From positions 1 through 64,000 of the IMG/VR virus record IMGVR_UViG_3300042519_001519: a stretch of DNA of 64,000 nt; one strand, 5' to 3'. A program made the position numbers and the translations under genes. The DNA comes from an uncultured virus (IMG/VR IMGVR_UViG_3300042519_001519) (lineage: Duplodnaviria; Heunggongvirae; Uroviricota; Caudoviricetes). Below the pieces are notes generated by a model. It saw nothing but the letters and a program-made list of their open reading frames with translations. It did not search any database and was not told the DNA's origin. Within the stretch, counting starts at the first letter, position 1. Each line of letters begins with the position of its first letter. Below are positions 8,445-48,967 of this stretch, piece by piece.

Positions 8445-8500
8445 AAAAAAGTTTTTTTCATATATTTATATATAGAAAAAGTTACTAACAAATAAAATTT

Positions 8501-9241
8501 ATGGAACAAAAGCAAAAATTTCCTACCGAAATGGTAGAATTACCATCAAGAGGGTTACTCTATCCTAAAGATTCTGCATTAGCAGAAGGTAAAATCGAGA
8601 TGAAATACATGACAGCTCGTGAGGAAGATATTCTAACAAATCAAAACTACATACAACAAGGAGTAGTTATTGATAAATTACTACAATCTCTTATTGTAAC
8701 TCCAATCAACTACGGAGATCTTTTATTAGGAGATAAGAATGCAATTCTAGTTGCTTCTAGGGTATTAGGGTACGGTAAAGATTATGAATTTGAATACAAA
8801 GGACGAAAAGAAGTAGTTGATCTTGCAGAATTAAAAACTAAAGAAATTAATTACGATGCTCTTAAGGGAGGTAAAAATGAATTTGCATATATAATGCCAT
8901 CTTCAAGTACCAATGTTACTTTCAAATTACTTACTCACGCAGATGAGCAATTTATCGATCAAGAAGTAAAAGGATTAAAAAAATTAACAAAAGATGCTTC
9001 TCCGGAATTATCTACAAGATTGAAAAGAATAATTACTTCTGTAGAAGGAGATTCAACACCTAAAGCAATTAGAGATTTTGTCGATAATTACTTATTAGCA
9101 AGAGACTCTAGAGCATTTAGAGAACACATTAGACAGGTACAACCGGATGTTGACTTAAAATTCTTCCCAGAAGATGGACCTGAAGGAGGGGTAGATATCC
9201 CAATTGGGGTTAGCTTTCTTTGGCCTGACGCCGGAATATAG
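8501..9241 (+). CDS. Tail assembly chaperone / baseplate hub assembly protein (T4 gp26-like)
   Basis: VELPSRGLLY, MTAREEDILT motifs; lies between tube and tape measure. Confidence 0.8.
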   Translation: MEQKQKFPTEMVELPSRGLLYPKDSALAEGKIEMKYMTAREEDILTNQNYIQQGVVIDKLLQSLIVTPINYGDLLLGDKNAILVASRVLGYGKDYEFEYKGRKEVVDLAELKTKEINYDALKGGKNEFAYIMPSSSTNVTFKLLTHADEQFIDQEVKGLKKLTKDASPELSTRLKRIITSVEGDSTPKAIRDFVDNYLLARDSRAFREHIRQVQPDVDLKFFPEDGPEGGVDIPIGVSFLWPDAGI

Positions 9242-35963: not shown

Positions 35964-36119
35964 ATGTCTAAAAATTCAGCAAAGAGTATCTATACTCAAC
36001 TAATGGAATGGATTCCTACACTGAACCGTCCAAAACAAGCCGTAGAACAATCATCAACTAAATTCAGCAAAGCTGATCACTACAAATCAAAAGGAGCATA
36101 TGGCAAAGCAGGTAATTAA
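35964..36119 (+). CDS. 51-aa basic hypothetical protein (not in the ORF track)
   Basis: MSKNSAKSIYTQLMEW...; A-rich leader; fills the intergenic gap. Confidence 0.5.
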   Translation: MSKNSAKSIYTQLMEWIPTLNRPKQAVEQSSTKFSKADHYKSKGAYGKAGN

Positions 36120-36366
36120 ATTTTTCGCCGATTGGTGTGGACCTTGTAAGATCTACGGACCATCTTTTACTCAAGTGAGAGAAGAATTAGAAAGTGATGA
36201 GATTACTTTCTTAGAAATTAATGTTGAAAATGATCCTGAAAATTTAGCAGGTGAATACGGAGTAAGAGGAATTCCTCATACGGTAGTTGTACAAGAGGGA
36301 GTAGAACCAAAAGCTGCATCCGGAAGACTAGGAGTAGAAGAATTAAAAGAATTTATTTTAAACTAA
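36100..36366 (+). CDS. Thioredoxin
   Basis: FFADWCGPCK, GIP. Confidence 0.93.
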   Translation: MAKQVIKFFADWCGPCKIYGPSFTQVREELESDEITFLEINVENDPENLAGEYGVRGIPHTVVVQEGVEPKAASGRLGVEELKEFILN

Positions 36367-36378
36367 AAACTAAAACAA

Positions 36379-36687
36379 ATGTTACGTAATCCAAACACAA
36401 TACCAGCAGGTGATACAGTTATCGAGGATCCAATCATGGAGCCATTCTTCATTACGCATTCTTCATCAGGAGGATATACAGTTTACGAAAGAGTAAACAG
36501 AGGTAAAGATGATAAAGCATATCTGAGAACTGTATGCTATCCAGCCACATTCAATTATGCATTGAGAGCTGTTTCAAAAGAGCTATTAAGTTTTAATAGT
36601 AACAAGCACTTTAAGACAATAAAGGAATATATTGAAACTTGGGACTCTATTGAGCAAAGTATGAAGACAATGACTACTATCGGATAA
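36379..36687 (+). CDS. Hypothetical protein
   Basis: ORF in operon. Confidence 0.6.
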   Translation: MLRNPNTIPAGDTVIEDPIMEPFFITHSSSGGYTVYERVNRGKDDKAYLRTVCYPATFNYALRAVSKELLSFNSNKHFKTIKEYIETWDSIEQSMKTMTTIG

Positions 36688-36697
36688 GAAAGAGAAT

Positions 36698-36847
36698 ATG
36701 GTAGAGACATTTAGACATGCGATGGGACTATGTGGAGAGCATTGGCACCCTAATTTATTAAATATTTCTGCATTTTCTGTTGCCTTCGGAGGAAGTATTT
36801 CATATATTAAGTATAAAATAAAATCATTATGGAAGAAGCAGGATTAA
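36698..36847 (+). CDS. 49-aa membrane peptide (HAMGLCGEHWHP; not in the ORF track)
   Basis: His/Cys cluster followed by a hydrophobic segment. Confidence 0.45.
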   Translation: MVETFRHAMGLCGEHWHPNLLNISAFSVAFGGSISYIKYKIKSLWKKQD

Positions 36848-37032
36848 TATCGTTATACGATTATTTAGGTTATGCAGCCGGGGGTGAATTAGGTAAACAG
36901 GTAGCTACAGCTGCTGCTAAGTCTAAAGAGAAGATTGGCAAAAGAGCAATCAGCAATACTCGATATAAAGGAGAAGTATTGTTATACCGTAGAGAGTTCT
37001 TACAAGAGTATTTTAAAACTCAACAACTATAG
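36829..37032 (+). CDS. Hypothetical protein
   Basis: ORF downstream of the promoter at 36780-36810. Confidence 0.55.
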   Translation: MEEAGLISLYDYLGYAAGGELGKQVATAAAKSKEKIGKRAISNTRYKGEVLLYRREFLQEYFKTQQL

Positions 37033-37080
37033 CGTTTGCCTATACGCTTAAAATACCTGGCTTATTTAAAATTATAAATT

Positions 37081-37971
37081 ATGTCTAAAAAACATGTTGT
37101 AGTATCCTTAAGTGGAGGAATGGACTCAAGTACATTATTACTTAGATGTCTAAAAGAGTATGATAGTGTAACAGCTATCTCATTTGACTATGGTCAAAAA
37201 CACAGAGTAGAGCTAGATAGAGCTCAATCATTGGTGAATTATATAAATTCAAACGATTCTATTGAAGCTAATGGAAGTAATTACATATTTTACCCAAAAG
37301 TAAACTATCGCCAAATCAAACTAGACGGATTAGTTGACTTACTAGATTCAGCTTTAGTAACTGGAGGTGAAGATGTACCAGAAGGTCACTATGCAGAAGA
37401 TAATATGAAAGCAACAGTTGTTCCTAACAGAAACAAAATATTTGCTTCTATTACTCAAGCAATAGCTTTATCAGTTGCTCAAAGAACAGGTGAATTTTGT
37501 AGTATTGCTTTAGGTATTCACGCTGGAGATCATGCAATTTATCCTGATTGTAGACAAGAATTCCGTGATGCTGATGATTATGCATTTAGAATAGGAAATT
37601 GGGGAGCTGAAAATGTAGGGTATTTTACACCTTACTTGAAAGGAGATAAATTTACTATCTTACAAGACGGAGAAGTATTATGTGAAGAATTAGGATTAAA
37701 TTTTGATGAAGTTTATAAAAGAACTAACACATCTTATAAACCAATTTGGATACCTGGACCTGAAAGTAACTCAAGAGTAGAAGAAACACTTAGAACTAAA
37801 TTTGGAGAATGGTACTCAGATTATAAATCAGCTTCATCAGTTGAAAGAGTAGAAGCATTTATTAAATTAGGAAGAAAAGATCCAGCTCCTTATGCAGACG
37901 AAACAGGACCAGTAACATGGGAACATGTGGTAGCAGAGGTAACAAAAGTATTAGATAACCATAACAATTAA
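37081..37971 (+). CDS. queC: 7-cyano-7-deazaguanine synthase
   Basis: SLSGGMDS, FDYGQKH, TVVPNRN, HAGDHAIYPDCR. Confidence 0.95.
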   Translation: MSKKHVVVSLSGGMDSSTLLLRCLKEYDSVTAISFDYGQKHRVELDRAQSLVNYINSNDSIEANGSNYIFYPKVNYRQIKLDGLVDLLDSALVTGGEDVPEGHYAEDNMKATVVPNRNKIFASITQAIALSVAQRTGEFCSIALGIHAGDHAIYPDCRQEFRDADDYAFRIGNWGAENVGYFTPYLKGDKFTILQDGEVLCEELGLNFDEVYKRTNTSYKPIWIPGPESNSRVEETLRTKFGEWYSDYKSASSVERVEAFIKLGRKDPAPYADETGPVTWEHVVAEVTKVLDNHNN

Positions 37972-37975
37972 GATT

Positions 37976-38446
37976 ATGAACGAAACAAACAGCAACTGGC
38001 TGACAAACAATCCTTGTAATATAACTACAACAGGAATAACAACAGGAACATCCACTATAAACGGATACTCAGGAACAACAATATCCGGAAATTCTACAAC
38101 ACATATAAACGGAACAGTAGGAATGGGATGTATTAATCCTTCAGAAAAACTTACAATATCGGGAACAAACTTTAACCAAGGATTAACCCTACAAGGAAAT
38201 TCAACAATTAATTATTCAACAAATCAAATTCAAAATAACATGGCACCAAGACAAGTACAAGTAGCAGTATTCACAATCACAAGAGATGTAGATACAAATG
38301 AAATCAATTCAACAACATTTGTAAAAGAATTATGGGTTGAGCAAAAAAACGGAACATCAATCGATTTAATTGTTGCAAAAAAATTAGATAAAGATTTTGA
38401 TCCTGAATTTACAATTATTAAAGTACTTTCAACAGTATCTTTTTAA
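37976..38446 (+). CDS. Hypothetical protein with a Thr/Gly/Asn-rich N-terminus
   Basis: ORF; VGMGCINPSEKL resembles fibre-type VGIGTTNP repeats. Confidence 0.5.
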   Translation: MNETNSNWLTNNPCNITTTGITTGTSTINGYSGTTISGNSTTHINGTVGMGCINPSEKLTISGTNFNQGLTLQGNSTINYSTNQIQNNMAPRQVQVAVFTITRDVDTNEINSTTFVKELWVEQKNGTSIDLIVAKKLDKDFDPEFTIIKVLSTVSF

Positions 38447-38514
38447 TAAAAAAGTTGCTCAATTGAATTAAAGTTCGTATCTTTAAGTATTATTAATAAC
38501 AAAAGAAAGTAAAA

Positions 38515-38715
38515 ATGAAAAAAGTATTTTTAGTATTAGCATTAGTATCAGCAGTATTAGTGTCTTGTAAAAAAGTAGAAGCACCTGCAAGATTAACAAC
38601 AGTAGACTCAACAGCAGTAGTAGTTGATTCAGCATCAGTTGATACAACAGAAGAAGGTGCAATCATTGAAACTGAAAAAGTTCAGGATTCAATCGACGCT
38701 GCAACCACAAAGTAA
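38515..38715 (+). CDS. Small lipoprotein
   Basis: MKK-hydrophobic-LVSC lipobox; own promoter at 38455-38485. Confidence 0.75.
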   Translation: MKKVFLVLALVSAVLVSCKKVEAPARLTTVDSTAVVVDSASVDTTEEGAIIETEKVQDSIDAATTK

Positions 38716-38922
38716 AACACACCCCAGTAGATAGGTCCGCCAAGAAAGTCTTTAAACAACGTGGGAACTGCGGCTCTCCCAATGTGGCTGGAATGTTTTA
38801 AAATTACCAATGCTCGCTGTTAATTGAGAAGTAGAGTGTATTAATTTCCGAACAAGGGTTTATAGTAGGAAGGCGTCACTTATTGCACTCAATCAGAAAC
38901 CCTGAAAGACCAAGGTTGGTAA
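38714..38922 (+). ncRNA. Unassigned structured RNA (two pseudoknotted domains)
   Basis: CCAGT/GCTGG, TGGGA/TCCCA, CCGC/GCGG; TTACCAA/TTGGTAA enclosing crossed GAGTGTA/TGCACTC and AGGGTTT/AAACCCT. Confidence 0.5.
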
Positions 38923-38927
38923 AAAAA

Positions 38928-39015
38928 GAATCGGTTAGTGTCAACGGGAAAGTTCCTGCTAGGGTTAACATGGACGATAAGTCTGGATGAGGGTTCGAAT
39001 CCCTCACCGATTCCA
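38928..39015 (+). ncRNA. tRNA-like element with an expanded D-loop and an aberrant anticodon arm
   Basis: GAATCGGT/ACCGATTC stem; perfect T-arm GAGGG-TTCGAAT-CCCTC; no 7-nt anticodon loop. Confidence 0.6.
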
Positions 39016-39024
39016 AATTTTAAG

Positions 39025-39386
39025 ATTACCGTTCTTTGAATTTAAAAAACAAAACTATGGAACAAATTTTAGCATTTGTTTTAGGTGTTAGTATAGCTCT
39101 TCTTGTATGGGGAGTTGTGGTAGCGTTTAAGACAGTAAAGAAAGTAAAGCAGATTGAACAAAAGATTGCAGGACATCAAGAGTGGATTCAAAGAAACGAT
39201 GAGATGGTGAATCGTAGAATAGATCAAGAAGTTGATCGAACAAATAATGTCTTCAATGACTGTATCAGACATACAGATTCAAGAGTAGATAAATTAGAAC
39301 AAAAACTTACATCAATTGACAGAAACGGATGTGAGCCAGTTAAAGACAAGTTATTAAAAGGATAAATTAACCCAAAGAACGGTAAT
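39025..39386. repeat. 14-bp perfect inverted repeat flanking ORF 39057..39365
   Basis: ATTACCGTTCTTTG (39025-39038) / CAAAGAACGGTAAT (39373-39386). Confidence 0.85.
39057..39365 (+). CDS. Membrane-anchored coiled-coil protein
   Basis: N-terminal TM segment; ATG at 39057 with A-rich leader. Confidence 0.65.
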   Translation: MEQILAFVLGVSIALLVWGVVVAFKTVKKVKQIEQKIAGHQEWIQRNDEMVNRRIDQEVDRTNNVFNDCIRHTDSRVDKLEQKLTSIDRNGCEPVKDKLLKG

Positions 39387-39387
39387 T

Positions 39388-39879
39388 ATTAAAAAACTAT
39401 TATACATAATATATTTCATCCCATTACTATGCTATTCTCAGAATATCATAATAGGAGACTCACAAACACCTTACATTGATAAAAATTCAAATAAGGTAGA
39501 AAAAGTAAGCTCTTTATGGAAGGGAGGGATAGGAGTTGATAAATTGACCTCAATGGTTTCAAATTATAAAACATCTCCTAAAGTAAAAAATATAATTTTA
39601 TGTATAGGAACAAATAACAATTTCCGAACAGGAAATATTAAAGAATTATTCAAAGCAGTAAAGAAAACTTTTCCAAATGCTACCATTTATGTAATAAAAG
39701 GATCATGGGGTTGGGGAGGAAACAAAAGAATAACAGAAGAAAAAGTAAATAATTATTACAAACAATACGAAAAAGAAGGAGGAATCATAATAAATCCAGC
39801 AATAGGAAGAAATGAACCTCACCAGAATTTAACAGTTTATAAAACAATAGGACAACAATTGGATAATATTTTAAAATAA
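39388..39879 (+). CDS. Secreted SGNH/GDSL-like hydrolase with no canonical start (ATT start or pseudogene)
   Basis: In-frame extension of 39544..39879: IKKLLYIIYFIPLLCYS/Q signal, IIIGDS, IGTNN, EPH. Confidence 0.65.
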   Translation: MKKLLYIIYFIPLLCYSQNIIIGDSQTPYIDKNSNKVEKVSSLWKGGIGVDKLTSMVSNYKTSPKVKNIILCIGTNNNFRTGNIKELFKAVKKTFPNATIYVIKGSWGWGGNKRITEEKVNNYYKQYEKEGGIIINPAIGRNEPHQNLTVYKTIGQQLDNILK

Positions 39880-39891
39880 TTTATTTAATAG

Positions 39892-39922
39892 TTGGTTTGG
39901 AAAGGAAAAGTTCATATATTTA
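39892..39922 (+). promoter_or_regulatory. Promoter upstream of the leader peptide
   Basis: TTG-N20-TATATTTA. Confidence 0.7.
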
Positions 39923-39940
39923 TATATAGAAACAAATAAA

Positions 39941-40081
39941 ATGAAAGCACAACAAAACATACATCAACTTAATCTTACAGCGCAGAGAGCCATTAGTATA
40001 TGGTCGGATTCGTTATGTGGAGATGTGATTGTAGGCTTTACGTATAATAACGAACCGAAAAAAGGCAAGACCGGGGTATGA
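39941..40081 (+). CDS. 46-aa putative attenuator leader peptide (not in the ORF track)
   Basis: MKAQQNIHQLNLTAQRAISIWSDSLCGDVIVGFTYNNEPKKGKTGV; A-rich start context; contains all 20 amino acids. Confidence 0.65.
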   Translation: MKAQQNIHQLNLTAQRAISIWSDSLCGDVIVGFTYNNEPKKGKTGV

Positions 40082-40114
40082 TATAATTAACTTATACATA
40101 TAAATTCTAATAAG

Positions 40115-40152
40115 AACCCGGATCAAATAAAAAAGATTCGGGTTTTTTATTT
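40115..40152 (+). terminator. Intrinsic terminator (candidate attenuator)
   Basis: AACCCGGATC-loop-GATTCGGGTT plus TTTTATTT. Confidence 0.85.
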
Positions 40153-40160
40153 AAAAAAAG

Positions 40161-40191
40161 TTGCTAGAAAGAATTAAAGATCGTATCTTTA
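40161..40191 (+). promoter_or_regulatory. Promoter directly upstream of the tRNA array
   Basis: TTG-N20-TATCTTTA. Confidence 0.7.
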
Positions 40192-40213
40192 GGTATATAA
40201 ATAAAGAATAAGA

Positions 40214-40229
40214 GTTCATTGACATATTG
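40214..40229 (+). promoter_or_regulatory. boxA-like antitermination element
   Basis: GTTCATTGACATATTG resembles rrn boxA (GYTCTTTAACA); lies between the promoter and the first tRNA. Confidence 0.55.
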
Positions 40230-40241
40230 GATAAAGCATAA

Positions 40242-40325
40242 GGAAGGCGGCCGAATGGACGAGGAGCTTGTCTTGAAAACAAGTAGCGGGTAACACCGTT
40301 GTGGGTTCGATTCCCATGTCTTCCT
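40242..40325 (+). tRNA. tRNA-Ser(TGA)
   Basis: Cloverleaf; CTTGT-CTTGAAA-ACAAG; long variable arm. Confidence 0.9.
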
Positions 40326-40331
40326 CAATAT

Positions 40332-40403
40332 TGGCTTATAGTGTAACGGTTAGCACAAAACACTTTGACTGTTTTAGTCTAGGTTCGAATCCTAGTAAGC
40401 CAA
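40332..40403 (+). tRNA. tRNA-Gln(TTG)
   Basis: AAACA-CTTTGAC-TGTTT; canonical T-arm. Confidence 0.92.
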
Positions 40404-40412
40404 CAATAATTT

Positions 40413-40488
40413 CGGGTAGTAGAGGAGTCTGGTTTATCTCGCTGGCCTTGGACGCTAGAGCACGCAGGTTCGAATCCTGCTTACCCGA
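40413..40488 (+). tRNA. tRNA-Pro(TGG)
   Basis: CTGGC-CTTGGAC-GCTAG. Confidence 0.92.
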
Positions 40489-40494
40489 CGAATT

Positions 40495-40566
40495 GCCCCT
40501 ATAACTTAACGGCTAAAGTACTATACTTTTAATATAGGAATCCAAGTTCGATTCTTGGTGGGGGTA
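40495..40566 (+). tRNA. tRNA-Lys(TTT)
   Basis: CTATA-CTTTTAA-TATAG. Confidence 0.9.
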
Positions 40567-40571
40567 CAAAA

Positions 40572-40667
40572 GCTACATACACAACCTTACAATCTCTCAG
40601 TTAAAAGCTGTTGTAAGATCAAGTAATAAGCCAATATGCTTGTTAGTTGTGATCAGGTGTAGCACCA
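40572..40667 (+). ncRNA. Non-tRNA structured RNA with an acceptor-like stem and ACCA end
   Basis: GCTACAT/GTGTAGC+ACCA; CACAAC/GTTGTG; CTTACAA/TTGTAAG; TAATAAGC/GCTTGTTA. Confidence 0.65.
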
Positions 40668-40738
40668 GCCTCGTTGGCGTAATGGGAGCGTATTTCTTTT
40701 ACATGGAAATGGCAGTAGTTCGATTCTACTACGAGGTA
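40668..40738 (+). tRNA. tRNA-Val(TAC)
   Basis: TTTCT-TTTACAT-GGAAA; full cloverleaf. Confidence 0.85.
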
Positions 40739-40837
40739 CAAAATTCTGGGTAGCAAGTAAAATACCGGCAAGTATTTTCAAGTCTATATGGAGTCTATTA
40801 TGAGTTATTAATTTGCCGATGAAAGCTTGTTATAGTT

Positions 40838-40909
40838 TCGTTCTTGGTAGATTGGTGACTACGCTGCCCGCGGAGGGTGGAGAAGCAGGTTCGATTCCTG
40901 TAGAATGAT
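40838..40909 (+). tRNA. Atypical tRNA, anticodon CGG (Pro?), with G at position 33
   Basis: TCGTTCT/AGAATGA; GTAG/CTAC; CTGCC-CGCGGAG-GGTGG; canonical T-arm. Confidence 0.6.
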
Positions 40910-40915
40910 CAAATT

Positions 40916-40996
40916 GGGATGCTTCAGTCACTGGTGTGATAAGCGGTCTGTAAAATCGTTCTGTAAGAAGGTGTGGTTCGATTCCACAGTGTCCCA
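40916..40996 (+). tRNA. tRNA-Tyr(GTA)
   Basis: GCGGT-CTGTAAA-ATCGT; variable arm. Confidence 0.85.
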
Positions 40997-41058
40997 CAAA
41001 TATGGAATAACATCGCTCCCGTAATGCCATGGCTTGTATACGAGTGACGGGAGACAAT

Positions 41059-41131
41059 GGACCTTTGGTATAGCTGGTGCGTACGCTAGTCTGAAGAACT
41101 AGAGGAGTAGGTTCGATTCCTACAGGGTCCA
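41059..41131 (+). tRNA. tRNA-Phe(GAA)
   Basis: CTAGT-CTGAAGA-ACTAG. Confidence 0.92.
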
Positions 41132-41133
41132 CG

Positions 41134-41208
41134 AAGTAGAGAGGTATGGGTTCGAGTCCCATCCGGGCCGTTAGCGGCGCGGTAGTATAACGGTAGTAAC
41201 GCTTTCTT
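41134..41208 (+). ncRNA. Circularly permuted tRNA-like element (YrlA/Y-RNA-like topology)
   Basis: T-arm first, then acceptor stem closed by a TTAG loop, then D-arm; termini pair AAG-T-AGAG/CTTT-CTT. Confidence 0.7.
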
Positions 41209-41280
41209 GGGTTTGTCGTATAACGGCTATTACGGATGACTGTTAATCATCTTATGAAGGTTCGATTCCTTCCAGGCCCG
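41209..41280 (+). tRNA. tRNA-Asn(GTT)
   Basis: GATGA-CTGTTAA-TCATC. Confidence 0.92.
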
Positions 41281-41286
41281 CAAAAT

Positions 41287-41360
41287 AGGTAATTAGCTCA
41301 ATTGGTTAGAGCACTCGCCTGATACGTGAGAGGTTATAGGTTCGATTCCTATATTACCTA
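41287..41360 (+). tRNA. tRNA-Ile(GAT)
   Basis: CTCGC-CTGATAC-GTGAG. Confidence 0.92.
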
Positions 41361-41365
41361 CAAAG

Positions 41366-41448
41366 GGAAAGTAAATCAACTAGGAGTTGAGACCGCTTGC
41401 TAAGCGTATCGTGCCTTCGGGCATGGGGTTCGATACCTCTGCTTTCCT
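41366..41448 (+). tRNA. tRNA-Ser(GCT)
   Basis: TTGCTAA loop; GTGCC-TTCG-GGCAT variable arm; some mismatches. Confidence 0.8.
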
Positions 41449-41579
41449 CAAAAAAACCTCCTCACCGTCCTCACAACGCATCTAAGGAATGCAGGAGAAG
41501 GAAGTACGAACGGGGCCCCGTGGTAAGACACATTAAAATCAGATAGTACAGCGATAGGGTAAGAGGTTCCCTATCAACT

Positions 41580-41648
41580 ACCGACTTGATCTAGGATCGA
41601 GAATATCTCATAAGTATTCTCAGACAAGAGCGTAACTTGTAGTCGGTA
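41580..41648 (+). tRNA. Atypical tRNA(CAT) with a minimal D-arm and non-canonical T-loop
   Basis: ACCGACT/AGTCGGT; GAATAT-CTCATAA-GTATTC; ACAAG-AGCGTAA-CTTGT. Confidence 0.6.
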
Positions 41649-41765
41649 CTAAATTATATGGGTAGGTAGGAAGTTAAGAAACGTTTCTCAAAAAACGACT
41701 TAATGAGGTAAAGCGTTAGAGTAGTAAAATTGAGTAAGCGTTATTAAAGTAGTATAATTTTATAT

Positions 41766-41837
41766 GGTGTTCGAAGCTTTTTAGTGAAGCGCAAGACTGT
41801 GAATCTTGAGAAGACGGGGCGGTACCGTCCTTACACC
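41766..41837 (+). tRNA. tRNA-His(GTG), divergent
   Basis: CAAGA-CTGTGAA-TCTTG; G-1/C73; T-loop GGCGGTA and two acceptor mismatches. Confidence 0.75.
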
Positions 41838-41843
41838 CAACAT

Positions 41844-41923
41844 GCCTCTGTGGTGAAATAGGTAAACACACCAGGCTTAAAACTTGGCGCTCAGGCTTGC
41901 TGGTTCGACTCCAGTCAGGGGTA
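41844..41923 (+). tRNA. tRNA-Leu(TAA)
   Basis: CCAGG-CTTAAAA-CTTGG; variable arm. Confidence 0.9.
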
Positions 41924-42012
41924 CAAAAAAATCGCTGATGTCCTCTTTAATTGTTCGACATTGAAGATGTGTAATGATATAAACATCGTAGGTTAAGCGA
42001 TATCCTACAACT

Positions 42013-42084
42013 GGTCTTATAGTTTAATTGGAAAAACTTATCGCTACGAACGATAGAACGTAGGTTCGACTCCTACTAAGACCT
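42013..42084 (+). tRNA. tRNA-Arg(ACG)
   Basis: TATCG-CTACGAA-CGATA. Confidence 0.92.
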
Positions 42085-42244
42085 CAAAATATAATTACAA
42101 AGCGTAGGTAAGAAGACGTGGAGAGACGTTGCGCAAGGGTACACACTAAGGATAAGTATTTATACTCAACTCTCTAAGGGTGTGTGAAGCACTAAGAAAT
42201 TAGATCCCAGATTCCTGATAAAACTTACTAATTATATTTTAACC

Positions 42245-42316
42245 GCCCTATTAGTTAAACGGATATAACGAATCTCTTCTAAAGATTAATTCTAGGTTCG
42301 ATTCCTGGATGGGGTA
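42245..42316 (+). tRNA. tRNA-Arg(TCT)
   Basis: AATCT-CTTCTAA-AGATT. Confidence 0.92.
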
Positions 42317-42322
42317 CAACAA

Positions 42323-42393
42323 GCGGGTCACAGACAAGGTGTCGGTACGGTCTCCAAAACTGCTACGGGTAGGTTCGATTCCTACGGTCTGCG
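42323..42393 (+). tRNA. tRNA-Trp(CCA), short D-arm
   Basis: CGGT-CTCCAAA-ACTG; canonical T-arm. Confidence 0.8.
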
Positions 42394-42460
42394 CAAAATT
42401 ATTAATTATGAAAAAGAAATTCGATGCTCATTAGGTTTATTAACCTAAAATTTGAGCAAG

Positions 42461-42643
42461 ATGAGAATCAAAAACTATACTCAGAAAGAGTATAAAAAAG
42501 AAAAAAGAAAACAATCCAAAGATGGTGGAATGTGGTTTGAAGACTATTGGAGTAAATGTAAATCCGGAATATGGGCCTTCAAGTACAGAGAGTACCGTAC
42601 TTGGAAGTACAACAGAAAAACACAGTATAAACCTTTAAATTAA
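42461..42643 (+). CDS. Small basic hypothetical protein
   Basis: Lys/Arg/Trp-rich; ends RTWKYNRKTQYK. Confidence 0.5.
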   Translation: MRIKNYTQKEYKKEKRKQSKDGGMWFEDYWSKCKSGIWAFKYREYRTWKYNRKTQYKPLN

Positions 42644-42648
42644 AAATC

Positions 42649-43155
42649 ATGAGTAAGTATCAAAAAGCACTAGTAGTGGATGCAAGCTTTACAGCAAGAT
42701 CAGTTATAAGTACCGAACGAGCGTTCGTGATTTTTTATAAGGGTAATGCTGAAGTAGTAGCAGAGCATCCAGAAACATTTAGTTTAATTAATCCTGAACT
42801 AACCATTTACAAACCTTCTATTATTAGAGTAGCTAAGTATGTAAAACAAAACATTCAAAAAGTACCTCTAACAAGAGAGAATATTTACCGAAGAGATAAT
42901 TATGAATGTGTTTATTGTGGTAGTTCAAATCAAAGAATATTAACACTTGACCATGTTATCCCTCAATCAAAAGGAGGAAAAGATGCTTGGGATAATTTAG
43001 TAACAGCTTGTAGACCATGTAATCATGAGAAAGCAGATTTAACATTAGAGGAATATGGTAAGGAAATTCCAGAACCAAAAAGACCTCATTATTTAATGTT
43101 AATGAGAAGTATGACATACATACCTAAAGAATGGGAAACATTTTTATTCTTTTAA
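42649..43155 (+). CDS. HNH endonuclease inside the tRNA array
   Basis: RDNYECVYCG...LTLDHVIPQSKGG...NLVTACRPCNHEK. Confidence 0.93.
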   Translation: MSKYQKALVVDASFTARSVISTERAFVIFYKGNAEVVAEHPETFSLINPELTIYKPSIIRVAKYVKQNIQKVPLTRENIYRRDNYECVYCGSSNQRILTLDHVIPQSKGGKDAWDNLVTACRPCNHEKADLTLEEYGKEIPEPKRPHYLMLMRSMTYIPKEWETFLFF

Positions 43156-43158
43156 ATA

Positions 43159-43314
43159 ATGGAAGAGTGGAAGCCAGGATATTATGATAAATGGGAGAAT
43201 TTTATTCCTTATGATAAAAAATGGTATTGTAATGAAAATAAAAGAATCCATCAATCAGAAAAGGAAAAAAATAATTGTAAGTATTGCAATAAAGGTTTGG
43301 AAAACCAGAAATAG
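43159..43314 (+). CDS. 51-aa possible Zn-binding peptide (not in the ORF track)
   Basis: C-x6-H-x8-C-x2-C spacing. Confidence 0.4.
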   Translation: MEEWKPGYYDKWENFIPYDKKWYCNENKRIHQSEKEKNNCKYCNKGLENQK

Positions 43315-43327
43315 TTTCATATATTAA
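43297..43327 (+). promoter_or_regulatory. Internal promoter for the second half of the tRNA array
   Basis: TTG-N20-TATATTAA. Confidence 0.7.
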
Positions 43328-43424
43328 GGTATAAGAAAGTAAAATATATCACCTACTACAAAACGGCGCGCGAAACAATAGAATCCCGACTTGTACTGTC
43401 TGGAAGGTCAGGCTAGGTGAAAAT

Positions 43425-43495
43425 GGGCAGTTGGCCGATTGGTTAGGCACAGGATTGCAAACTCTGTTAGGTTGGTTCGATTCCAACACTGCCCT
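43425..43495 (+). tRNA. tRNA-Cys(GCA)
   Basis: TTGCAAA loop; U73. Confidence 0.88.
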
Positions 43496-43590
43496 CATTT
43501 AAGGTTCGACCCTCTACCAAATGTGTTACACCCACAAATGGACAACGAGAGGGAGCTACCGATTGATAAGTGGCCGCACATGCGGCAAAT

Positions 43591-43664
43591 GCCCGAGTGG
43601 TGGAATTGGCAGACACGGCGGCCTTAGAAGTCGTAAACTGAGAGTTCGAGTCTCTCCTTGGGTA
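43591..43664 (+). tRNA. tRNA-Leu(TAG) lacking the long variable arm
   Basis: GCGGC-CTTAGAA-GTCGT; Leu-type D-loop; 5-nt variable region. Confidence 0.85.
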
Positions 43665-43668
43665 CAAA

Positions 43669-43735
43669 TTAGAGTTAGCTTATAGTAAAGCAGCAGGGGC
43701 TAACCTGCAGAACGGATACGAAAACCGGCTCTAAT
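43669..43735 (+). ncRNA. Degenerate tRNA-like element (6-nt loop GGCTAA, aberrant T-arm)
   Basis: TTAGAGT/GCTCTAA; GCTT/AAGC; GCAGG/CCTGC; CGG/CCG. Confidence 0.55.
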
Positions 43736-43740
43736 TATCT

Positions 43741-43814
43741 GCTTCTGACGCACAAATGGTGGTGCACCGGATTTGTAACCCAGAATAGAGTCGGTTCGAT
43801 CCCGTCCAGAAGCT
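43741..43814 (+). tRNA. tRNA-Thr(TGT), mismatched anticodon stem
   Basis: GCTTCTG/CAGAAGC; TTTGTAA loop. Confidence 0.7.
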
Positions 43815-43819
43815 CAACT

Positions 43820-43891
43820 GCGACTATCGTATAATGGTCATTACTTCAGACTTCCAATCTGAAGATGAGAGTTCGATTCTCTCTAGTCGCT
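43820..43891 (+). tRNA. tRNA-Gly(TCC)
   Basis: TCAGA-CTTCCAA-TCTGA. Confidence 0.93.
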
Positions 43892-43942
43892 CAGGGGTGT
43901 GTAGGAGCCCAAGAGTATGTGATGAGCATACGCCTACAATTT

Positions 43943-44014
43943 GCTGCCATCGTCTAACGGCTAGGACCTATGGTTTTCATCCATAAAATCGGAGTTCGAT
44001 TCTCCGTGGCAGTA
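43943..44014 (+). tRNA. tRNA-Glu(TTC)
   Basis: TATGG-TTTTCAT-CCATA. Confidence 0.92.
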
Positions 44015-44019
44015 CAAAA

Positions 44020-44091
44020 GGGGCTATAGTGAAATTGGCATCACGATAGATTTGCATTCTGTTATTCCGGGTTCGAATCCCGGTAGCTCCA
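44020..44091 (+). tRNA. tRNA-Ala(TGC)
   Basis: TTTGCAT loop; G3-U70 pair. Confidence 0.93.
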
Positions 44092-44096
44092 CAAAA

Positions 44097-44168
44097 GGTC
44101 TATTCGTTCAACGGCTAGGATACTACCCTGTCACGGTAGGGATGAGAGTTCGATTCTCTCATAGACCG
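44097..44168 (+). tRNA. tRNA-Asp(GTC)
   Basis: CTACC-CTGTCAC-GGTAG; G73. Confidence 0.93.
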
Positions 44169-44177
44169 CTTATAAAC

Positions 44178-44247
44178 TGCGTTAAAGTGTAAAGGTTGCA
44201 TCCCGGTCTCATAAGCCGGGGGGGTGGTTCGAGTCCACGCTACGCTA
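44178..44247 (+). tRNA. tRNA(CAT), initiator-like
   Basis: CCGGT-CTCATAA-GCCGG; 1:72 mismatch. Confidence 0.7.
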
Positions 44248-44253
44248 CAAATT

Positions 44254-44327
44254 GTCCTTTTAGCTCAGATGGTGAGAGCAGCTCGCTCATAACGAGAAGG
44301 TCACAGGTTCGAGCCCTGTATAGGACA
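44254..44327 (+). tRNA. tRNA(CAT), elongator Met or Ile2
   Basis: CTCG-CTCATAA-CGAG; canonical D and T arms. Confidence 0.85.
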
Positions 44328-44391
44328 CTAAATTTTATCCACTATGAGGTCAATTCCTTCGTCTCCAATGTAGGTTAGCTATTGCTAACTT

Positions 44392-44625
44392 ATGACTCAG
44401 AAATTGAGAATTTGGAGAGTAGTCCCAACCAGCATGACTGGTGTTCAGGCTCCCACGTTTTTTGTAGAAACTACAGAAAATGGTAGAGAAGAAGCAGAAA
44501 AATCTGCAAACCTACAAGCAAGACAAAAATCTCGCTTGGGTAAGTTTAACAATTGGTATTTTGATTTAACAAGAATGAATGTCAGAGTAGACAGACATGG
44601 GAGGTATATCAAACATCACCAATAA
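44392..44625 (+). CDS. Hypothetical protein
   Basis: ORF after the tRNA array. Confidence 0.55.
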   Translation: MTQKLRIWRVVPTSMTGVQAPTFFVETTENGREEAEKSANLQARQKSRLGKFNNWYFDLTRMNVRVDRHGRYIKHHQ

Positions 44626-44692
44626 GAAATATTCGGAGAAAGGTTTGGAAACCTGAACCTTTCTTCTTATATTAAATAAAAATAAAGGTAAT

Positions 44693-44908
44693 ATGGTCTG
44701 GTCTGTATTTAGTATTGAAGTAAAAGAGCAATTAGCATGGACAATACATACTAGACTATTTATGGGCGATCTATCTAATATAGATCTTACAACAGATTGG
44801 AGATTTTGTGATGTTAAAGGAAAAAGAAGGAATTGTATATTCTTAGGTTTTATTGACAACCCAGAATTTCCATTAAAAGAACCAATAAAAACATATAGAA
44901 ATAATTAA
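44693..44908 (+). CDS. Hypothetical protein
   Basis: ORF after the promoter at 44645-44675. Confidence 0.5.
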   Translation: MVWSVFSIEVKEQLAWTIHTRLFMGDLSNIDLTTDWRFCDVKGKRRNCIFLGFIDNPEFPLKEPIKTYRNN

Positions 44909-44923
44909 ATAAAAATCATAGTT

Positions 44924-45835
44924 ATGAAAAATTCGTTATCTACAAAAGGGTTATCAATGTCTCAAGCACAATCAATCTCAAACTTGTGCAATCAACGTTC
45001 AAAAGATATTACAGCGAAATTGGCTGATATCAATAACGTTTCTAAAGAACTAGTAATAGGTTCAGAAACCTATGTAGAGACTAATGGGAATCCTATCCCA
45101 GTAAACGTAGTTGAGCTATTAACTGCTAAGGCAAGATTATCTGCCACTCAAGCTTTCTTGATGGAGAATATCAAAGCAAAGGATGAATTGATTACTAAAA
45201 TCAAATTTGAAAAGTATAACTACGAGGTTGAATCTCCAGAGAGACCAAAACTAATCTCAGAAGTAATTCCAACAGAAGTGGATGAAGATTTTGGTTGGGA
45301 TACTTTATCTACAGCCGAATACAACGAATACCTAGAGGCAGAAGCTTATGCTTCACATATCGGACAATTCATCCATAAAGGAGGAAAATTGGATAAGTTG
45401 AGAGGAGAACTTCCTACCATTAAAACTTTAGAGTTTATGGAAATAGAAGTAGGAAAGAAAACTCCTATGAAAGTATCTATTCACCATACAGCAGAACAAT
45501 TGCTTTCAGTTCATGAACAATTAGCAGCTCTTCATAGAGGATTTGAACAAAGAGTAAATTACTTTAAATCTAAAGTAAAAAATGCTACTACTTCTGAGAA
45601 TGCTAGAATTCAGAAAGAGAGAGGTATCATTCAAGCAAGAGTGAATAACGAGAATGCAGAAGCTGCAAACAATTATAAGTTAGCTTATGATAAGTGGTCT
45701 GGAGAGGAACGTCAAGCACAACACGAGTTTGAAGAAAAACGTCAAGCAAGAATCCAAGAAGCTGTCAATTTAAAAATTGAAGTAGCAGAAAGATTCCAGG
45801 ACGTAGTAGATGAATTCTTGAATCAACTAAAATAA
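44924..45835 (+). CDS. Helical/coiled-coil protein of unknown function, followed by a structured RNA
   Basis: 303 aa; heptad-rich N- and C-terminal regions. Confidence 0.75.
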   Translation: MKNSLSTKGLSMSQAQSISNLCNQRSKDITAKLADINNVSKELVIGSETYVETNGNPIPVNVVELLTAKARLSATQAFLMENIKAKDELITKIKFEKYNYEVESPERPKLISEVIPTEVDEDFGWDTLSTAEYNEYLEAEAYASHIGQFIHKGGKLDKLRGELPTIKTLEFMEIEVGKKTPMKVSIHHTAEQLLSVHEQLAALHRGFEQRVNYFKSKVKNATTSENARIQKERGIIQARVNNENAEAANNYKLAYDKWSGEERQAQHEFEEKRQARIQEAVNLKIEVAERFQDVVDEFLNQLK

Positions 45836-46146
45836 TTTGGTGCTAAGGAGGTAAGCACAAGCCGATCCTCCAAAGCTTTATGCTGGGATAGTAGAGTTTT
45901 AAATATAAACTATATGATATATGTAATCATCTACAGACTAAACGGCCATGGGCCCTTTAAAACTCGCTTCCCTACAACTTAAACCAAACTGAGATAGAAC
46001 TCAACAGCTAGACATGTTACTCTTGAGGGAGACTAAAAGTGGCTAGCGACTCTAAGACTTAGTTTTTGTCCTTGCCCTTGTGGTAGTGGAAGGTTTTTGA
46101 CTTTGATTTTGCATTTGACCTAGGCTATATGCTTTACATCCCAGCA
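45836..46146 (+). ncRNA. ~310-nt structured RNA with period-6 G-NN-(Y)TT repeats
   Basis: GTGCT/AGCAC with GGAGG/CCTCC pseudoknot; TGCTGGGAT/ATCCCAGCA; GAGTTTTAAA/TTTAAAACTC; CTTCC-CTAC/GTAG-T-GGAAG. Confidence 0.7.
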
Positions 46147-46468: not shown

Positions 46469-47119
46469 ATGAAACTAGTATTAGAAAAAGGACAGCAATT
46501 GTTCTTTACATCAGACACACATTACTCACACTCAAACATTTGTAGTGCTACTACAAACTGGTCAGTGAATGATGGATATGCTCGTAAGTTTGATTCATTG
46601 GAAGATATGAACCAAAGACTAGTTGATAACATTAACAACATGGTCGGTGAAGATGATATCTTAATCCATTTAGGTGACTGGTCATTTGGAGGATTTGATA
46701 AGATTGAAGAATTCAGAAGTCAAATCAACTGTAAAAACATTCACTTGACATTTGGAAACCATGATCATCACATCGAAAGAAACAAAGAGGGAGTACAAAA
46801 ACTATTCTCTTCAGTACAAAACTATTTGAGATTAGAAGTACAAAGACCAATCAATAAAGCAACAACTGAAAAGTTTATTTTCGTTTGTATGCACTATCCA
46901 ATAGCGTCATGGCATGATATGAACCAAGGAGTAATTCACTTGCATGGCCACGTTCATTTACCTTCACACCTAAGAATAGCAGAAGGTAAGGCAATGGATG
47001 TTGGAGTAGATGGAAATGGTTTAGAGCCTTTATCATTAGATGAAATAGTAGAATTGATGAAAGATCGTCCAGTTAAAAAATTAGCTTTACCAAAGGATCA
47101 TCACGAAAAGAGAATTTAA
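46469..47119 (+). CDS. Calcineurin-like metallophosphoesterase
   Basis: SDTH, HLGD, GNHD, HYP, HGHVH, DVGVD. Confidence 0.92.
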   Translation: MKLVLEKGQQLFFTSDTHYSHSNICSATTNWSVNDGYARKFDSLEDMNQRLVDNINNMVGEDDILIHLGDWSFGGFDKIEEFRSQINCKNIHLTFGNHDHHIERNKEGVQKLFSSVQNYLRLEVQRPINKATTEKFIFVCMHYPIASWHDMNQGVIHLHGHVHLPSHLRIAEGKAMDVGVDGNGLEPLSLDEIVELMKDRPVKKLALPKDHHEKRI

Positions 47120-47839: not shown

Positions 47840-48967
47840 ATGGAAAATCAAAATAGTGTTTGCTTTGTAGCAACAATCAAAGAAGTAAAAGCAATCGAAG
47901 GAGCTGACAACATCGAACAAGTAGTTGTTGGAGGATGGAATGCTATTACCAAAAAAGGTGAATTTAAAGAAGGTGACTTAACAGTTATTGCAACTACGGA
48001 TGCAGTAATTCCAGAAGCATTTTCTGAAAAAATGGGAGTTACTTCTTATCTAAGAAAAGGAGGTAGAGTAAGAACTGTAAAATTAAGAGGAGTTTATTCT
48101 GAATGTCTAATCATTCCAACCAAATACATTCCAGGATATGGAGACAGATACCAAGATGGAGATGACATGATGGAAAAATTTGGTATTGTAAAATACGAAC
48201 CACCAGTTAAGCAAATTCAACTTGCTTCAGGTAGAAAAATTAAATGGAGAGACAATCAAAACTTCCATATCTACTACAAATTCCCAAACCTTAAAAACGT
48301 AGCAGGAATGTTTACTGAAGAAGATTTAGTAGAAATTACTAGAAAGGTTCACGGTACAAATGCTAGATACGGTATTGTAAAGAAAGGTAAATTATCATTC
48401 TGGGATAAAGTAAAAAAATTCTTTAGACTAGCTGATGAATGGATTGACTATGAATACATTTATGGATCTCATAACTGTGAAAAAGGAAGTGACTCTCAAG
48501 GATTCTATTCAACTGATGTTTGGAGAACAATCGCTGAAAAGTATAACATCAAAGAAAAACTTTGGAGTTATATTAAAAACAGAAATATTGAAATAGGTGA
48601 AGGTATTATCCTATACGGAGAGATTTACGGAGCAGGTATTCAGAAAAACTATGACTATGGTTTGACTGATATTGAGTTTGCAGGGTTTGATGTGAAACTT
48701 AAAGGAGAATACGTAAGTACATATGATGCTTGGGTTTTAATTGAAAACCATTTAAAATTACCTTATGTAGAGGTTTTACATTATGGGGATTGGACACAAG
48801 AAATCCAAGATAAATTTACATTCAACAACTTCATTGAAGGAACTAAAGTACCACATGAAGGAATTGTAATTAAATACTTCACCGGTGAACGTCAAAAGGT
48901 AGCAAAGGTAATCAATCCAGACTATTTGATCTACGGAGAGAAGAATGATGTAGGAGATTCTCACTAA
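47840..48967 (+). CDS. RNA ligase (DRB0094/Rnl5-like) with an N-terminal OB domain
   Basis: IEGADNIE, RVRTVKLRGVYSECL, KVHGTN (motif I), YGEIYG, FDV, EGIV, AKVINPDYL. Confidence 0.9.
   Translation: MENQNSVCFVATIKEVKAIEGADNIEQVVVGGWNAITKKGEFKEGDLTVIATTDAVIPEAFSEKMGVTSYLRKGGRVRTVKLRGVYSECLIIPTKYIPGYGDRYQDGDDMMEKFGIVKYEPPVKQIQLASGRKIKWRDNQNFHIYYKFPNLKNVAGMFTEEDLVEITRKVHGTNARYGIVKKGKLSFWDKVKKFFRLADEWIDYEYIYGSHNCEKGSDSQGFYSTDVWRTIAEKYNIKEKLWSYIKNRNIEIGEGIILYGEIYGAGIQKNYDYGLTDIEFAGFDVKLKGEYVSTYDAWVLIENHLKLPYVEVLHYGDWTQEIQDKFTFNNFIEGTKVPHEGIVIKYFTGERQKVAKVINPDYLIYGEKNDVGDSH

Follow-up and report, generated by a model that had tools for sequence, protein, structure and literature searches.

How might a phage that carries its own tRNA genes decide how strongly to transcribe them? 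The question is raised by a locus in an uncultured virus of the Caudoviricetes (Duplodnaviria; Heunggongvirae; Uroviricota), IMG/VR record IMGVR_UViG_3300042519_001519, of which we analysed positions 1 to 64,000 (hereafter the window; it is the first 64 kb of a 76-kb record that is estimated to be 47% complete). At 39892-40152 a promoter-like element, a 46-codon open reading frame (ORF) and an intrinsic terminator stand ahead of a tRNA array, and a first-pass annotation made from the sequence alone had read them as a leader-peptide attenuator that could sense a shortage of any tRNA. We favor, with moderate confidence, the interpretation that the element is a ribosome-mediated transcription attenuator in which efficient translation of the ORF would lead to termination and slow translation to read-through into the tRNA genes. 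The parts concerned are these:

39892-39894 (TTG) and 39915-39922 (-7 box, TATATTTA), + strand: P1, a Bacteroidota-type promoter-like element with a 20-nucleotide (nt) spacer
39941-40081, + strand: leader ORF of 46 codons plus TGA, from the sequence and the ORF list (ATG at 39941, TGA at 40079-40081)
40004-40058, + strand: predicted in-ORF hairpin, in which UCGG-A-UUCGUUAU pairs with AUAACGAACCGA, that is, the codons for WSDSL with those for YNNEPK
40069-40075, + strand: ORF tail (last codons AAG ACC GGG, 4-12 nt ahead of the ORF end), which would supply the 5' strand of the proposed antiterminator
40076-40101, + strand: stop-codon hairpin, a predicted fold with UGA (40079-40081) in its 5' strand
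40112-40148, + strand: intrinsic terminator (5' arm 40112-40124, with core CCCGGAUC at 40117-40124; loop 40125-40134; 3' arm 40135-40147; T run 40143-40148)
40161-40163 (TTG) and 40184-40191 (TATCTTTA), 20 nt apart, + strand: P2, another promoter-like element of the Bacteroidota type, located after the terminator and ahead of the first tRNA
40242-44328, + strand: tRNA array starting with tRNA-Ser(UGA), called by ARAGORN and Rfam

Does the locus hold two mutually exclusive RNA structures, as an attenuator would? The strong intrinsic terminator that had been claimed at 40115-40152 is present, and we place it at 40112-40148. Its region folds at -22.2 kcal/mol (z = -3.6), a stability matched by none of 200 shuffles. 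To follow it through relatives we used a nucleotide alignment (A3) of 42 distinct sequences, which is not codon-aware and from which two loci, L021 (terminator truncated) and L068 (ORF cut), were left out. A terminator with a U tract is found in 42/42 of these relatives at -12.5 to -18.2 kcal/mol; it is 97.3% paired, has four compensatory pairs (for example, columns 230/255 are C-G in 27 sequences and U-A in 15), and its U tract ends 63-72 nt past the stop codon in every one of the 42. The competing structure that had been proposed, a pairing of the ORF tail at 40069-40075 with CCCGG(A)UC in the terminator 5' arm, does form in the minimum-energy fold of the nascent RNA 40060-40126 (-14.1 kcal/mol), and the terminator wins once the 3' arm is present (-21.1 kcal/mol for 40060-40152). 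Over the whole leader the terminator state comes to -42.6 versus -35.6 kcal/mol. The inner helix of the earlier description corresponds to the hairpin predicted at 40076-40101 over the stop codon, which is 78% paired over the 42 sequences, with compensatory changes at three pairs, and is predicted to bring the ORF tail and the terminator arm together. Across the alignment the stop codon always lies in the same strand of this hairpin.

The first-pass annotation had made its proposal depend on conservation of the tail:arm pairing, and this pairing proved possible in 42/42 distinct relatives, with matched variants of tail and arm. In a duplex test of the last 18 nt of the ORF against the 14 nt ending the terminator 5' arm, energies ran from -7.1 to -13.2 kcal/mol in 42/42 (mean -10.4) versus -4.9 for shuffled tails, of which a median of 2.5% were as good as the real duplex. 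Tails paired better with their own arms (-10.36) than with those of other loci (-8.89), and 0 of 20000 permutations of the 28 unique combinations did as well, a count that is uncorrected for relatedness. The matching can be followed class by class: CCGGG tails occur with CCCGG arms in 13 cases and, by way of a G-U pair, with CUCGG arms in 3; CCGAG tails occur with CUCGG arms in 11 and with a GGUACC-CCCGR arm in 5, where the tail's own GGUACC can pair with the GGUACC of the arm; GAUYUGGG tails occur with the CCCAAAUC arm in 3 and with the CCCGGAUC arm in 3; a CCGGG tail occurs once with a GGUACC arm; and 3 cases are other combinations. The combination of a CCGAG tail with a plain CCCGG arm was found in 0 cases (Fisher 13/0 vs 4/16, P = 5e-6). 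A tree that used only the flanks gives seven phylogenetically independent pairs with contrasting arm classes. As a mean over 200 random pairings, about 6 of these have a tail that shifts in the matching direction, 0 have one that shifts the opposite way and about 1 has an unchanged tail (sign test, ~0.03). When the register is held fixed, pair 182/230 is G-C in 16 sequences, A-U in 10, G-U in 4 and unpaired in 12, pair 180/232 is C-G in 34, U-G in 5 and U-A in 3, and the antiterminator helix is 76% paired overall.

The codons of the tail are of interest in this respect. Threonine is ACC in 35/38 cases, glycine is GGG in 18/19 and glutamate is GAG in 16/16, while the other conserved glutamate of the peptide is GAA in 41/41; in phage genes the share of ACC is 7% and that of GGG likewise 7%. 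The tail amino acids themselves change freely (KTGV, KTGI, GTEV, TDLG). This pattern fits a synonymous choice of rare G/C-ending codons that would build the helix. Furthermore, the distance of the paired tail bases from the ORF end is 0-17 nt in 42/42 sequences, within reach of a terminating ribosome, so that the position of a ribosome could matter in just the way that an attenuator would need: the paired tail is near the ORF end and the stop codon is inside the adjoining hairpin.

Is the ORF translated? It has an ATG start and 44-51 codons in 52/52 full-length loci, and start and stop are kept in all 52. In alignment A3, 12/12 distinct gap runs within the ORF are multiples of three (a gap of 3 eight times, 9 once, 15 twice and 18 once), versus 4/18 downstream of it. 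In-frame gaps together with the kept start and stop are the main, indirect, support for translation. An A-rich stretch precedes the ATG, A occupying positions -3, -6 and -13; in the accessible part of PMC6847099, A at these positions favours initiation in Flavobacterium johnsoniae.

How closely is the ORF linked to tRNA genes? A large protein collection contains 131 homologues of the leader peptide; the 120 of them listed are 45-66 residues long and 60-96% identical. In an alignment of 34 homologues, 17 columns are invariant (M1, Q5, N6, I7, Q9, R16, S22, S24, C26, G32, F33, Y35, N36, N37, E38, P39 and K40). Scanning viral contigs with the peptide alignment yielded 53 loci, numbered here with the letter L, and a same-strand tRNA array lies downstream of the leader in 53/53, 113-866 nt past its stop; the array begins with tRNA-Ser(UGA) in 49 and with tRNA-Gln in 4. 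It had been suggested that leaders containing every amino acid be sought before tRNA arrays in related phages, and besides the constant presence of the array, the leader is complete, with all 20 amino acids, in 47/52 full-length copies, the remaining 5 being without Cys only. The genes upstream of the leader vary among loci, often including a homologue of a 109-amino-acid gene of the window. L006 and L007 have an upstream gene in common with the window, yet neither leader ORF nor tRNAs follow it.

What might such an ORF report? The earlier counts of 20 amino acids and 33 codon types within its 46 codons were both reproduced; the product is MKAQQNIHQLNLTAQRAISIWSDSLCGDVIVGFTYNNEPKKGKTGV. To find all 20 amino acids within 46 residues is uncommon and not extreme, as this is true of 1.2% of random peptides of phage composition and of 29/3398 windows of 46 residues in the phage's own proteins. 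Of the distinct sequences, 6 have lost the usual His (column 8), and 6/6 of these carry a His at another place in the leader; a second His is seen in 2/37 of the sequences that keep the one in column 8. The usual Trp (column 27) is lost in 3, with Trp elsewhere in 3/3, and 0/40 of the sequences that keep it have a second. Where Cys is lost (4 distinct sequences) there is no Cys elsewhere in the leader. The preference for G/C-ending codons that had been remarked on was also borne out: the G+C content of third codon positions is 0.37 in the leader vs 0.235 +/- 0.06 in 76 long ORFs of the record. With a rare codon defined as one whose share of its synonymous family is <0.12, 11/46 leader codons are rare (GCG, GCC, TCG twice, GTG, GGC twice, ACG, CCG, ACC and GGG), vs 5.6% of codons in long ORFs (binomial P = 3.6e-5). 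Several codons are fixed including their third base, namely AAC6, ATA7, AGA17, TCG28/30, TTA31, GGC47, TTT48, TAT51, GAA55, CCG56 (38/43), AAA57 and ACC61. Since every amino acid and many rare codons are represented in it, the leader would report overall decoding speed and not the supply of one amino acid.

From where would the array be transcribed? The annotation had placed promoters at 39892-39922 and 40161-40191. Promoter-like elements are indeed present at both places; neither P1 nor P2 was matched in a sigma-70 scan, and both are of the Bacteroidota type. In the accessible part of PMC9723704, the Bacteroidota sigma-A promoter is TTG, about 20 nt and then TAnnTTTG at -12 to -5. P1 would imply a start near 39927 and a 5' untranslated region of ~13 nt, and its strict motif precedes the ATG in 27/44 distinct relatives, with near-matches visible in the rest. 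A P2-like strict motif is present in 31/44 distinct loci, and most of the others have a near-match, TTTGG...CGTATATTA, as judged by eye. On the + strand the motif TTG-N17-21-TAnnTTT[AGT] occurs 23 times vs 9.1 +/- 3.6 in shuffles. The -7 region of P1 has an exact 22-nt copy at 8457-8478, before a gene at 8501, and P2 has an 82% identical copy at 38440-38499, before a gene at 38515; judging from these copies, the phage reuses two promoter types. In two relatives the arrangement differs. L060 keeps the terminator and has no P2-like element before tRNA-Ser. In L021 one deletion removes the terminator 3' arm, the U tract and P2, so that P1 and the ORF run straight into the tRNAs. Both loci fit an array served from P1, without proving it.

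A plausible scenario that joins these parts, which exist, are conserved and are linked to tRNA arrays, is as follows. Transcription from P1 would give a short transcript whose 46-codon ORF, beginning ~13 nt past the start, would be translated behind the moving RNA polymerase. If the tail at 40069-40075 is free when the terminator 5' arm emerges, it would pair with the arm and close a junction around the stop-codon hairpin; no terminator would then form, and transcription would cross P2 into the tRNA genes. If instead a ribosome keeps pace and stands on the last codons or the stop, it would cover the tail and melt the stop-codon hairpin, the terminator would form and the transcript would end at ~40148. 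Any decoding delay upstream would in this way raise tRNA transcription above the basal level supplied by P2, and the cause of the delay might be starvation or a loss of host tRNAs, such as anticodon nucleases would bring about. The conserved frame and the complementarity with its matched variants are shown; that the ORF is translated, that its translation is coupled to RNA polymerase, which way the switch works, what it senses and what triggers it physiologically are inferred.

The in-ORF hairpin could add to this scheme as a pause or timing hairpin that holds the polymerase until the ribosome arrives, which is what the 1:2 hairpins of classical attenuators do. Pairing over 42 sequences is 85-98%, the sequence hardly varies (one compensatory cell), and UGGU stands at the base of the hairpin. 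Because it varies so little and is broken, without compensation, in the clade with WSQ(I/L)L, we treat it as a prediction. As to transcripts, among RNA-library contigs of relatives one 215-nt contig of X2 covers 39977-40159, with DNA carry-over a possible source, and none of the RNA-library pieces listed bridges the terminator with 31 letters on each side.

How far does this evidence carry the attenuator proposal? Taken as a whole the proposal has gained in that the pairing is conserved, the ORF is kept in frame and heads tRNA arrays, and completeness is a trait of the family. The claim that the leader senses a shortage of any tRNA is too strong as worded because an amino acid type is confined to the last 7 codons in 18/43 distinct leaders and because leaders without Cys coexist with tRNA-Cys. 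A ribosome stalled at a unique amino acid within the last 7 codons would still cover the tail. We had considered the simpler rule that no unique amino acid is ever placed among the last codons and rejected it, as it is true for 25/43 distinct leaders only. The 5/52 leaders without Cys are a difficulty of their own: tRNA-Cys is still present in all three such records examined, and for this reason we also rejected the idea that the amino acids of the leader mirror the tRNAs of the array.

These two observations count against an attenuator that reports on decoding, and so do a number of others. With regard to the peptide, (i) there is no run of any one amino acid, and with it the enrichment for regulatory codons of classical attenuators is absent, each amino acid occurring once or a few times; (ii) the second half, with GFTYNNEPK and the 17 invariant columns, is more conserved than a mere sampler of codons needs; and (iii) the ratio of nonsynonymous to synonymous polymorphism (pN/pS), a crude measure, is 0.71 overall vs 0.68 in the neighbouring 109-amino-acid gene. 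Locally the ratio falls to 0.17 over GFTYNNEPK and rises to 1.12 in the tail. In view of the similar overall values we dropped pN/pS as a test of whether the ORF encodes something other than a protein. With regard to the RNA, (iv) no anti-antiterminator (1:2) helix of the kind known from classical attenuators was found, the in-ORF hairpin excludes the tail, and 39/42 whole nascent RNAs keep the tail:arm pairing; without an anti-antiterminator, an untranslated transcript would read through; (v) RNAalifold predicted 0 pairs in the tail-to-5'-arm alignment; (vi) nascent folds with at least 5 tail:arm pairs were obtained for 42/42 observed sequences, and also for shuffled tails (54% of 2520) and for chimeras (90% of 1228); and (vii) tail and arm are ~35 nt apart, and since the flank tree needs at least 16 changes of tail class and at least 14 of arm class, recombination of matched modules lying this close together could partly mimic repeated compensation. 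Point (vi) led us to drop the counting of pairs in nascent folds, shuffled and chimeric tails reaching 5 pairs so often; the C-rich arm has few other partners, for which reason pair counts are uninformative and only the energy is informative (observed minus shuffled, -6.8 kcal/mol). Finally, (viii) a second promoter past the terminator, which classical attenuators do not have and to which L060 and L021 are the exceptions, appears to give the array of most relatives a promoter-like element of its own, with no need for read-through. As P2 is conserved, read-through from P1 can add to, and not gate, transcription of the array in most relatives.

Could the locus be something else? We consider it unlikely, while giving the idea real weight, that the locus is just a small phage gene equipped with a promoter and a terminator of its own, whose 46-residue protein aids the tRNA module (in processing or repair) or counters a host defence directed at tRNA, with the array transcribed from P2; the complementarity of tail and terminator would then be a coincidence, or would matter just for the 3' end of a small mRNA. 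Promoter-gene-terminator units are common in phages. The family is conserved, with its invariant columns and low pN/pS over GFTYNNEPK, P2 is conserved as well, and the overall pN/pS equals that of the neighbouring protein gene. Nevertheless, a folded protein would not be expected to retain His and Trp by relocation, and the tail amino acids vary yet complementarity to the arm is kept by means of rare codons. L060, with no P2, and L021, in which P1 is fused to the array, also sit poorly with a gene that is separate from the array. Nor did database searches lead to a known protein: no Pfam family was found for 4 members of the leader-peptide family at E <= 1, PHROG matches lay above E = 0.2 only (best E 0.2-0.3, to families of no assigned function) and the ESM Atlas gave no usable match. 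AlphaFold2, provided with the family alignment, returned a low-confidence model (mean predicted local distance difference test 56.7, predicted template modelling score 0.27), in which the most conserved half scored 47-55.

A different reading, which we regard as improbable, keeps the translation-dependent terminator and makes the codons irrelevant. The terminator would serve as a conditional insulator or timer that shields P2 from P1 transcription or ties the array to the phase of infection or to translation initiation. P1, terminator and P2 do lie within ~300 nt and are all conserved, read-through would be the default in view of the missing anti-antiterminator, and many relatives have amino acids outside the zone where a stall matters. 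Such a device would leave unexplained why rare codons outside the helices are conserved, why 47/52 leaders are complete and why His and Trp relocate. Very little credence, in our judgement, is due to the view that the element acts as a structured RNA without being translated, for instance as a riboswitch or T-box-like tRNA sensor, and that its reading frame has no meaning. In its favour, the three codon positions differ little in nucleotide diversity (0.24/0.22/0.26), a good many codons have an invariant third position and UGGU stands at the base of the in-ORF hairpin; set against this are the contrast between gap runs inside the ORF and downstream of it, the start and stop kept in every full-length copy, and in-ORF helices that are almost without covariation. 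An Rfam scan of 36000-46000 at E <= 1 returned tRNAs and a weak piece of transfer-messenger RNA (tmRNA) only, and no family, T-box included, in 39892-40152. We continue to favor the leader-ORF attenuator over these alternatives. A broader proposal, which we put forward tentatively, is that a large clade of uncultured myoviruses infecting Bacteroidota has a general sensor of translation capacity, in which a test ORF with every amino acid and an abundance of rare codons would set, by its decoding speed and by way of the terminator/antiterminator switch, how far the phage's own complete tRNA set is transcribed.

What does the element head, and in what kind of genome? The array had been described as covering 20 amino acids. 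This holds at a lowered ARAGORN threshold (-ps85 or -ps80: 25-26 + strand genes, all 20 amino acids) and not at the default, where 20 tRNA genes are called and His, Thr and Trp are missing; Rfam weakly supports the Thr and Trp candidates. Other features of the window that bear on the array and on the nature of the phage are:

5734-7857, + strand: tail sheath, from a PHROG match
37081-37971, + strand: QueC-like protein, from a PHROG match
40212-40235, + strand: conserved box GAGTTCATTGACATATTGGATAAA, just before tRNA-Ser, in most of 43 distinct downstream regions
42649-43155, + strand: HNH endonuclease gene inside the array, from a PHROG match
46469-47119, + strand: phosphoesterase, just after the array, from a PHROG match
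47840-48967, + strand: RNA ligase, just after the array, from a PHROG match

The box GAGTTCATTGACATATTGGATAAA, seen in most of L016-L068, does not fit the Bacteroidota promoter form and may be a processing or binding site, or part of the leader, of the tRNA precursor. In 11/53 loci (L019, L021, L024, L026, L030 and others) the stretch separating P2 from tRNA-Ser contains, 60-330 nt past the stop, a tRNA-like piece that starts with GGGGCGGTGGTAAA; ARAGORN calls it at a very low threshold only and with inconsistent identities. Within the array, a 480-nt gap at 41362-41843 contains weak tRNA candidates (Ser-GCT, Met and His-GTG). Homing endonucleases occur in T4-type tRNA regions, where the HNH gene of this array would not be out of place. 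The phosphoesterase and RNA ligase form a pair which we take to resemble the genes with which T4-type phages repair tRNA, and at 54794-56464 there is a fusion that includes a tRNA-methyltransferase-like part; together the three look like a tRNA repair and modification module beside the array.

On the other side of the leader, an SGNH/GDSL-like ORF at 39409-39879, for which no PHROG match was obtained, has its catalytic-type motif IIIGDSQ upstream of the first in-frame ATG, GTG or TTG (39544), and is either truncated or begins with an unusual codon, ATA or ATT, near 39409. In the window, L004/L005 and L026 it separates the 109-amino-acid gene from the leader (in L026 its end precedes the leader); in many relatives the leader directly follows the 109-amino-acid gene, with no SGNH-like ORF between. 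Further upstream, a non-coding stretch at 38716-39035 follows a 66-amino-acid lipoprotein-like ORF and has at its end what looks like the T arm and acceptor piece of a tRNA (GGTTCGAATCCC, near 38992-39003). Part of it (38973-39006) gave the weak Rfam match to tmRNA (E 0.029), and ARAGORN called no tmRNA. The stretch is partly covered by contigs of RNA libraries, and relatives differ there by skips of 88-351 nt. It may be a phage-borne tmRNA-like RNA or another structured RNA.

The long ORFs of the window are all on the + strand, its GC content is ~0.34, PHROG matches also include ribonucleotide reductase and a DnaB-like helicase, and complete records of relatives are 166-173 kb. In a collection of cultured phages, blastn found no DNA match to the query and tblastn nothing useful, just four matches at E = 8 in Escherichia phages. 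A degenerate DNA pattern of the element matched a single 2.3-kb contig among GTDB genomes, in the bin of an uncultured bacterium. The host is probably a member of the Bacteroidota, since the promoter-like elements fit the Bacteroidota form and an A-rich stretch precedes the ATG as in Flavobacterium.

Why would such a device matter? Phage tRNA genes are usually viewed as helpers in codon usage, or as decoys or replacements against defences that cleave tRNA, and to our knowledge the control of their expression is rarely addressed. A literature search by title and abstract, beyond whose reach lay older and possibly relevant work on the T5 and T4 tRNA regions, found no leader ORF or attenuator before phage tRNA genes. 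If our interpretation is correct, tRNA genes would be under feedback regulation by decoding itself, a logic known from amino-acid operons and stress regulators, and a virus would exert closed-loop control over its tRNA supply. This would suit a response to depletion or cleavage of host tRNAs by anticodon nucleases and similar defences, and it is of interest that tRNA-repair-like genes adjoin the array. The element would also be a natural, compact sensor of overall translation speed in Bacteroidota and a handle on when phages need tRNAs of their own.

There is ample precedent for the individual parts of this model. The classical leader-peptide attenuators of amino-acid operons (trpL, hisL, leuL, thrL, ilvL and pheL) likewise have a short leader ORF followed by an intrinsic terminator, the 5' arm of which can be taken by an alternative helix, and, as proposed here, a ribosome at the end of the leader brings about termination and a lagging one read-through; leuL also makes use of rare codons. 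Apart from the differences already weighed above, the phage element departs from them in that phage tRNAs lie behind it in place of biosynthetic enzymes and in that its peptide is unusually conserved. A second point of comparison is the T-box riboswitch, which is untranslated and binds uncharged tRNA directly. It resembles the phage element in that the supply of tRNA is sensed through a choice between terminator and antiterminator ahead of genes for the translation apparatus; in contrast to it, the phage element has no Rfam T-box match and does have a conserved reading frame.

Closer in taxonomic terms, leader-peptide attenuation is reported as likely in a flavobacterium in the accessible part of PMC9723704. 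The leader of Bacillus subtilis vmlR is similar in that ribosome stalling leads to read-through of a terminator without being tied to one amino acid, as far as the available text of PMC9226507 goes; leaders of this type answer ribosome-bound drugs and control resistance factors, and no drug trigger is implied for the phage element. The nearest described system in logic, by analogy and on the strength of what is accessible of PMC10274678, would be the upstream ORF (uORF) of mycobacterial whiB7, a broad sensor of translation stress. There, stalling leads to antitermination, the triggers are inhibited genes for amino-acid biosynthesis, tRNAs and tRNA synthetases, and the uORF's coding sequence determines which starvations are sensed (PMC10274678). 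The two leaders have no sequence relation. Judged from the same portion of that source, the whiB7 uORF is enriched in Ala, variable and bacterial, and it controls a transcription factor, whereas the phage leader is amino-acid-complete and conserved and stands at the head of tRNA genes.

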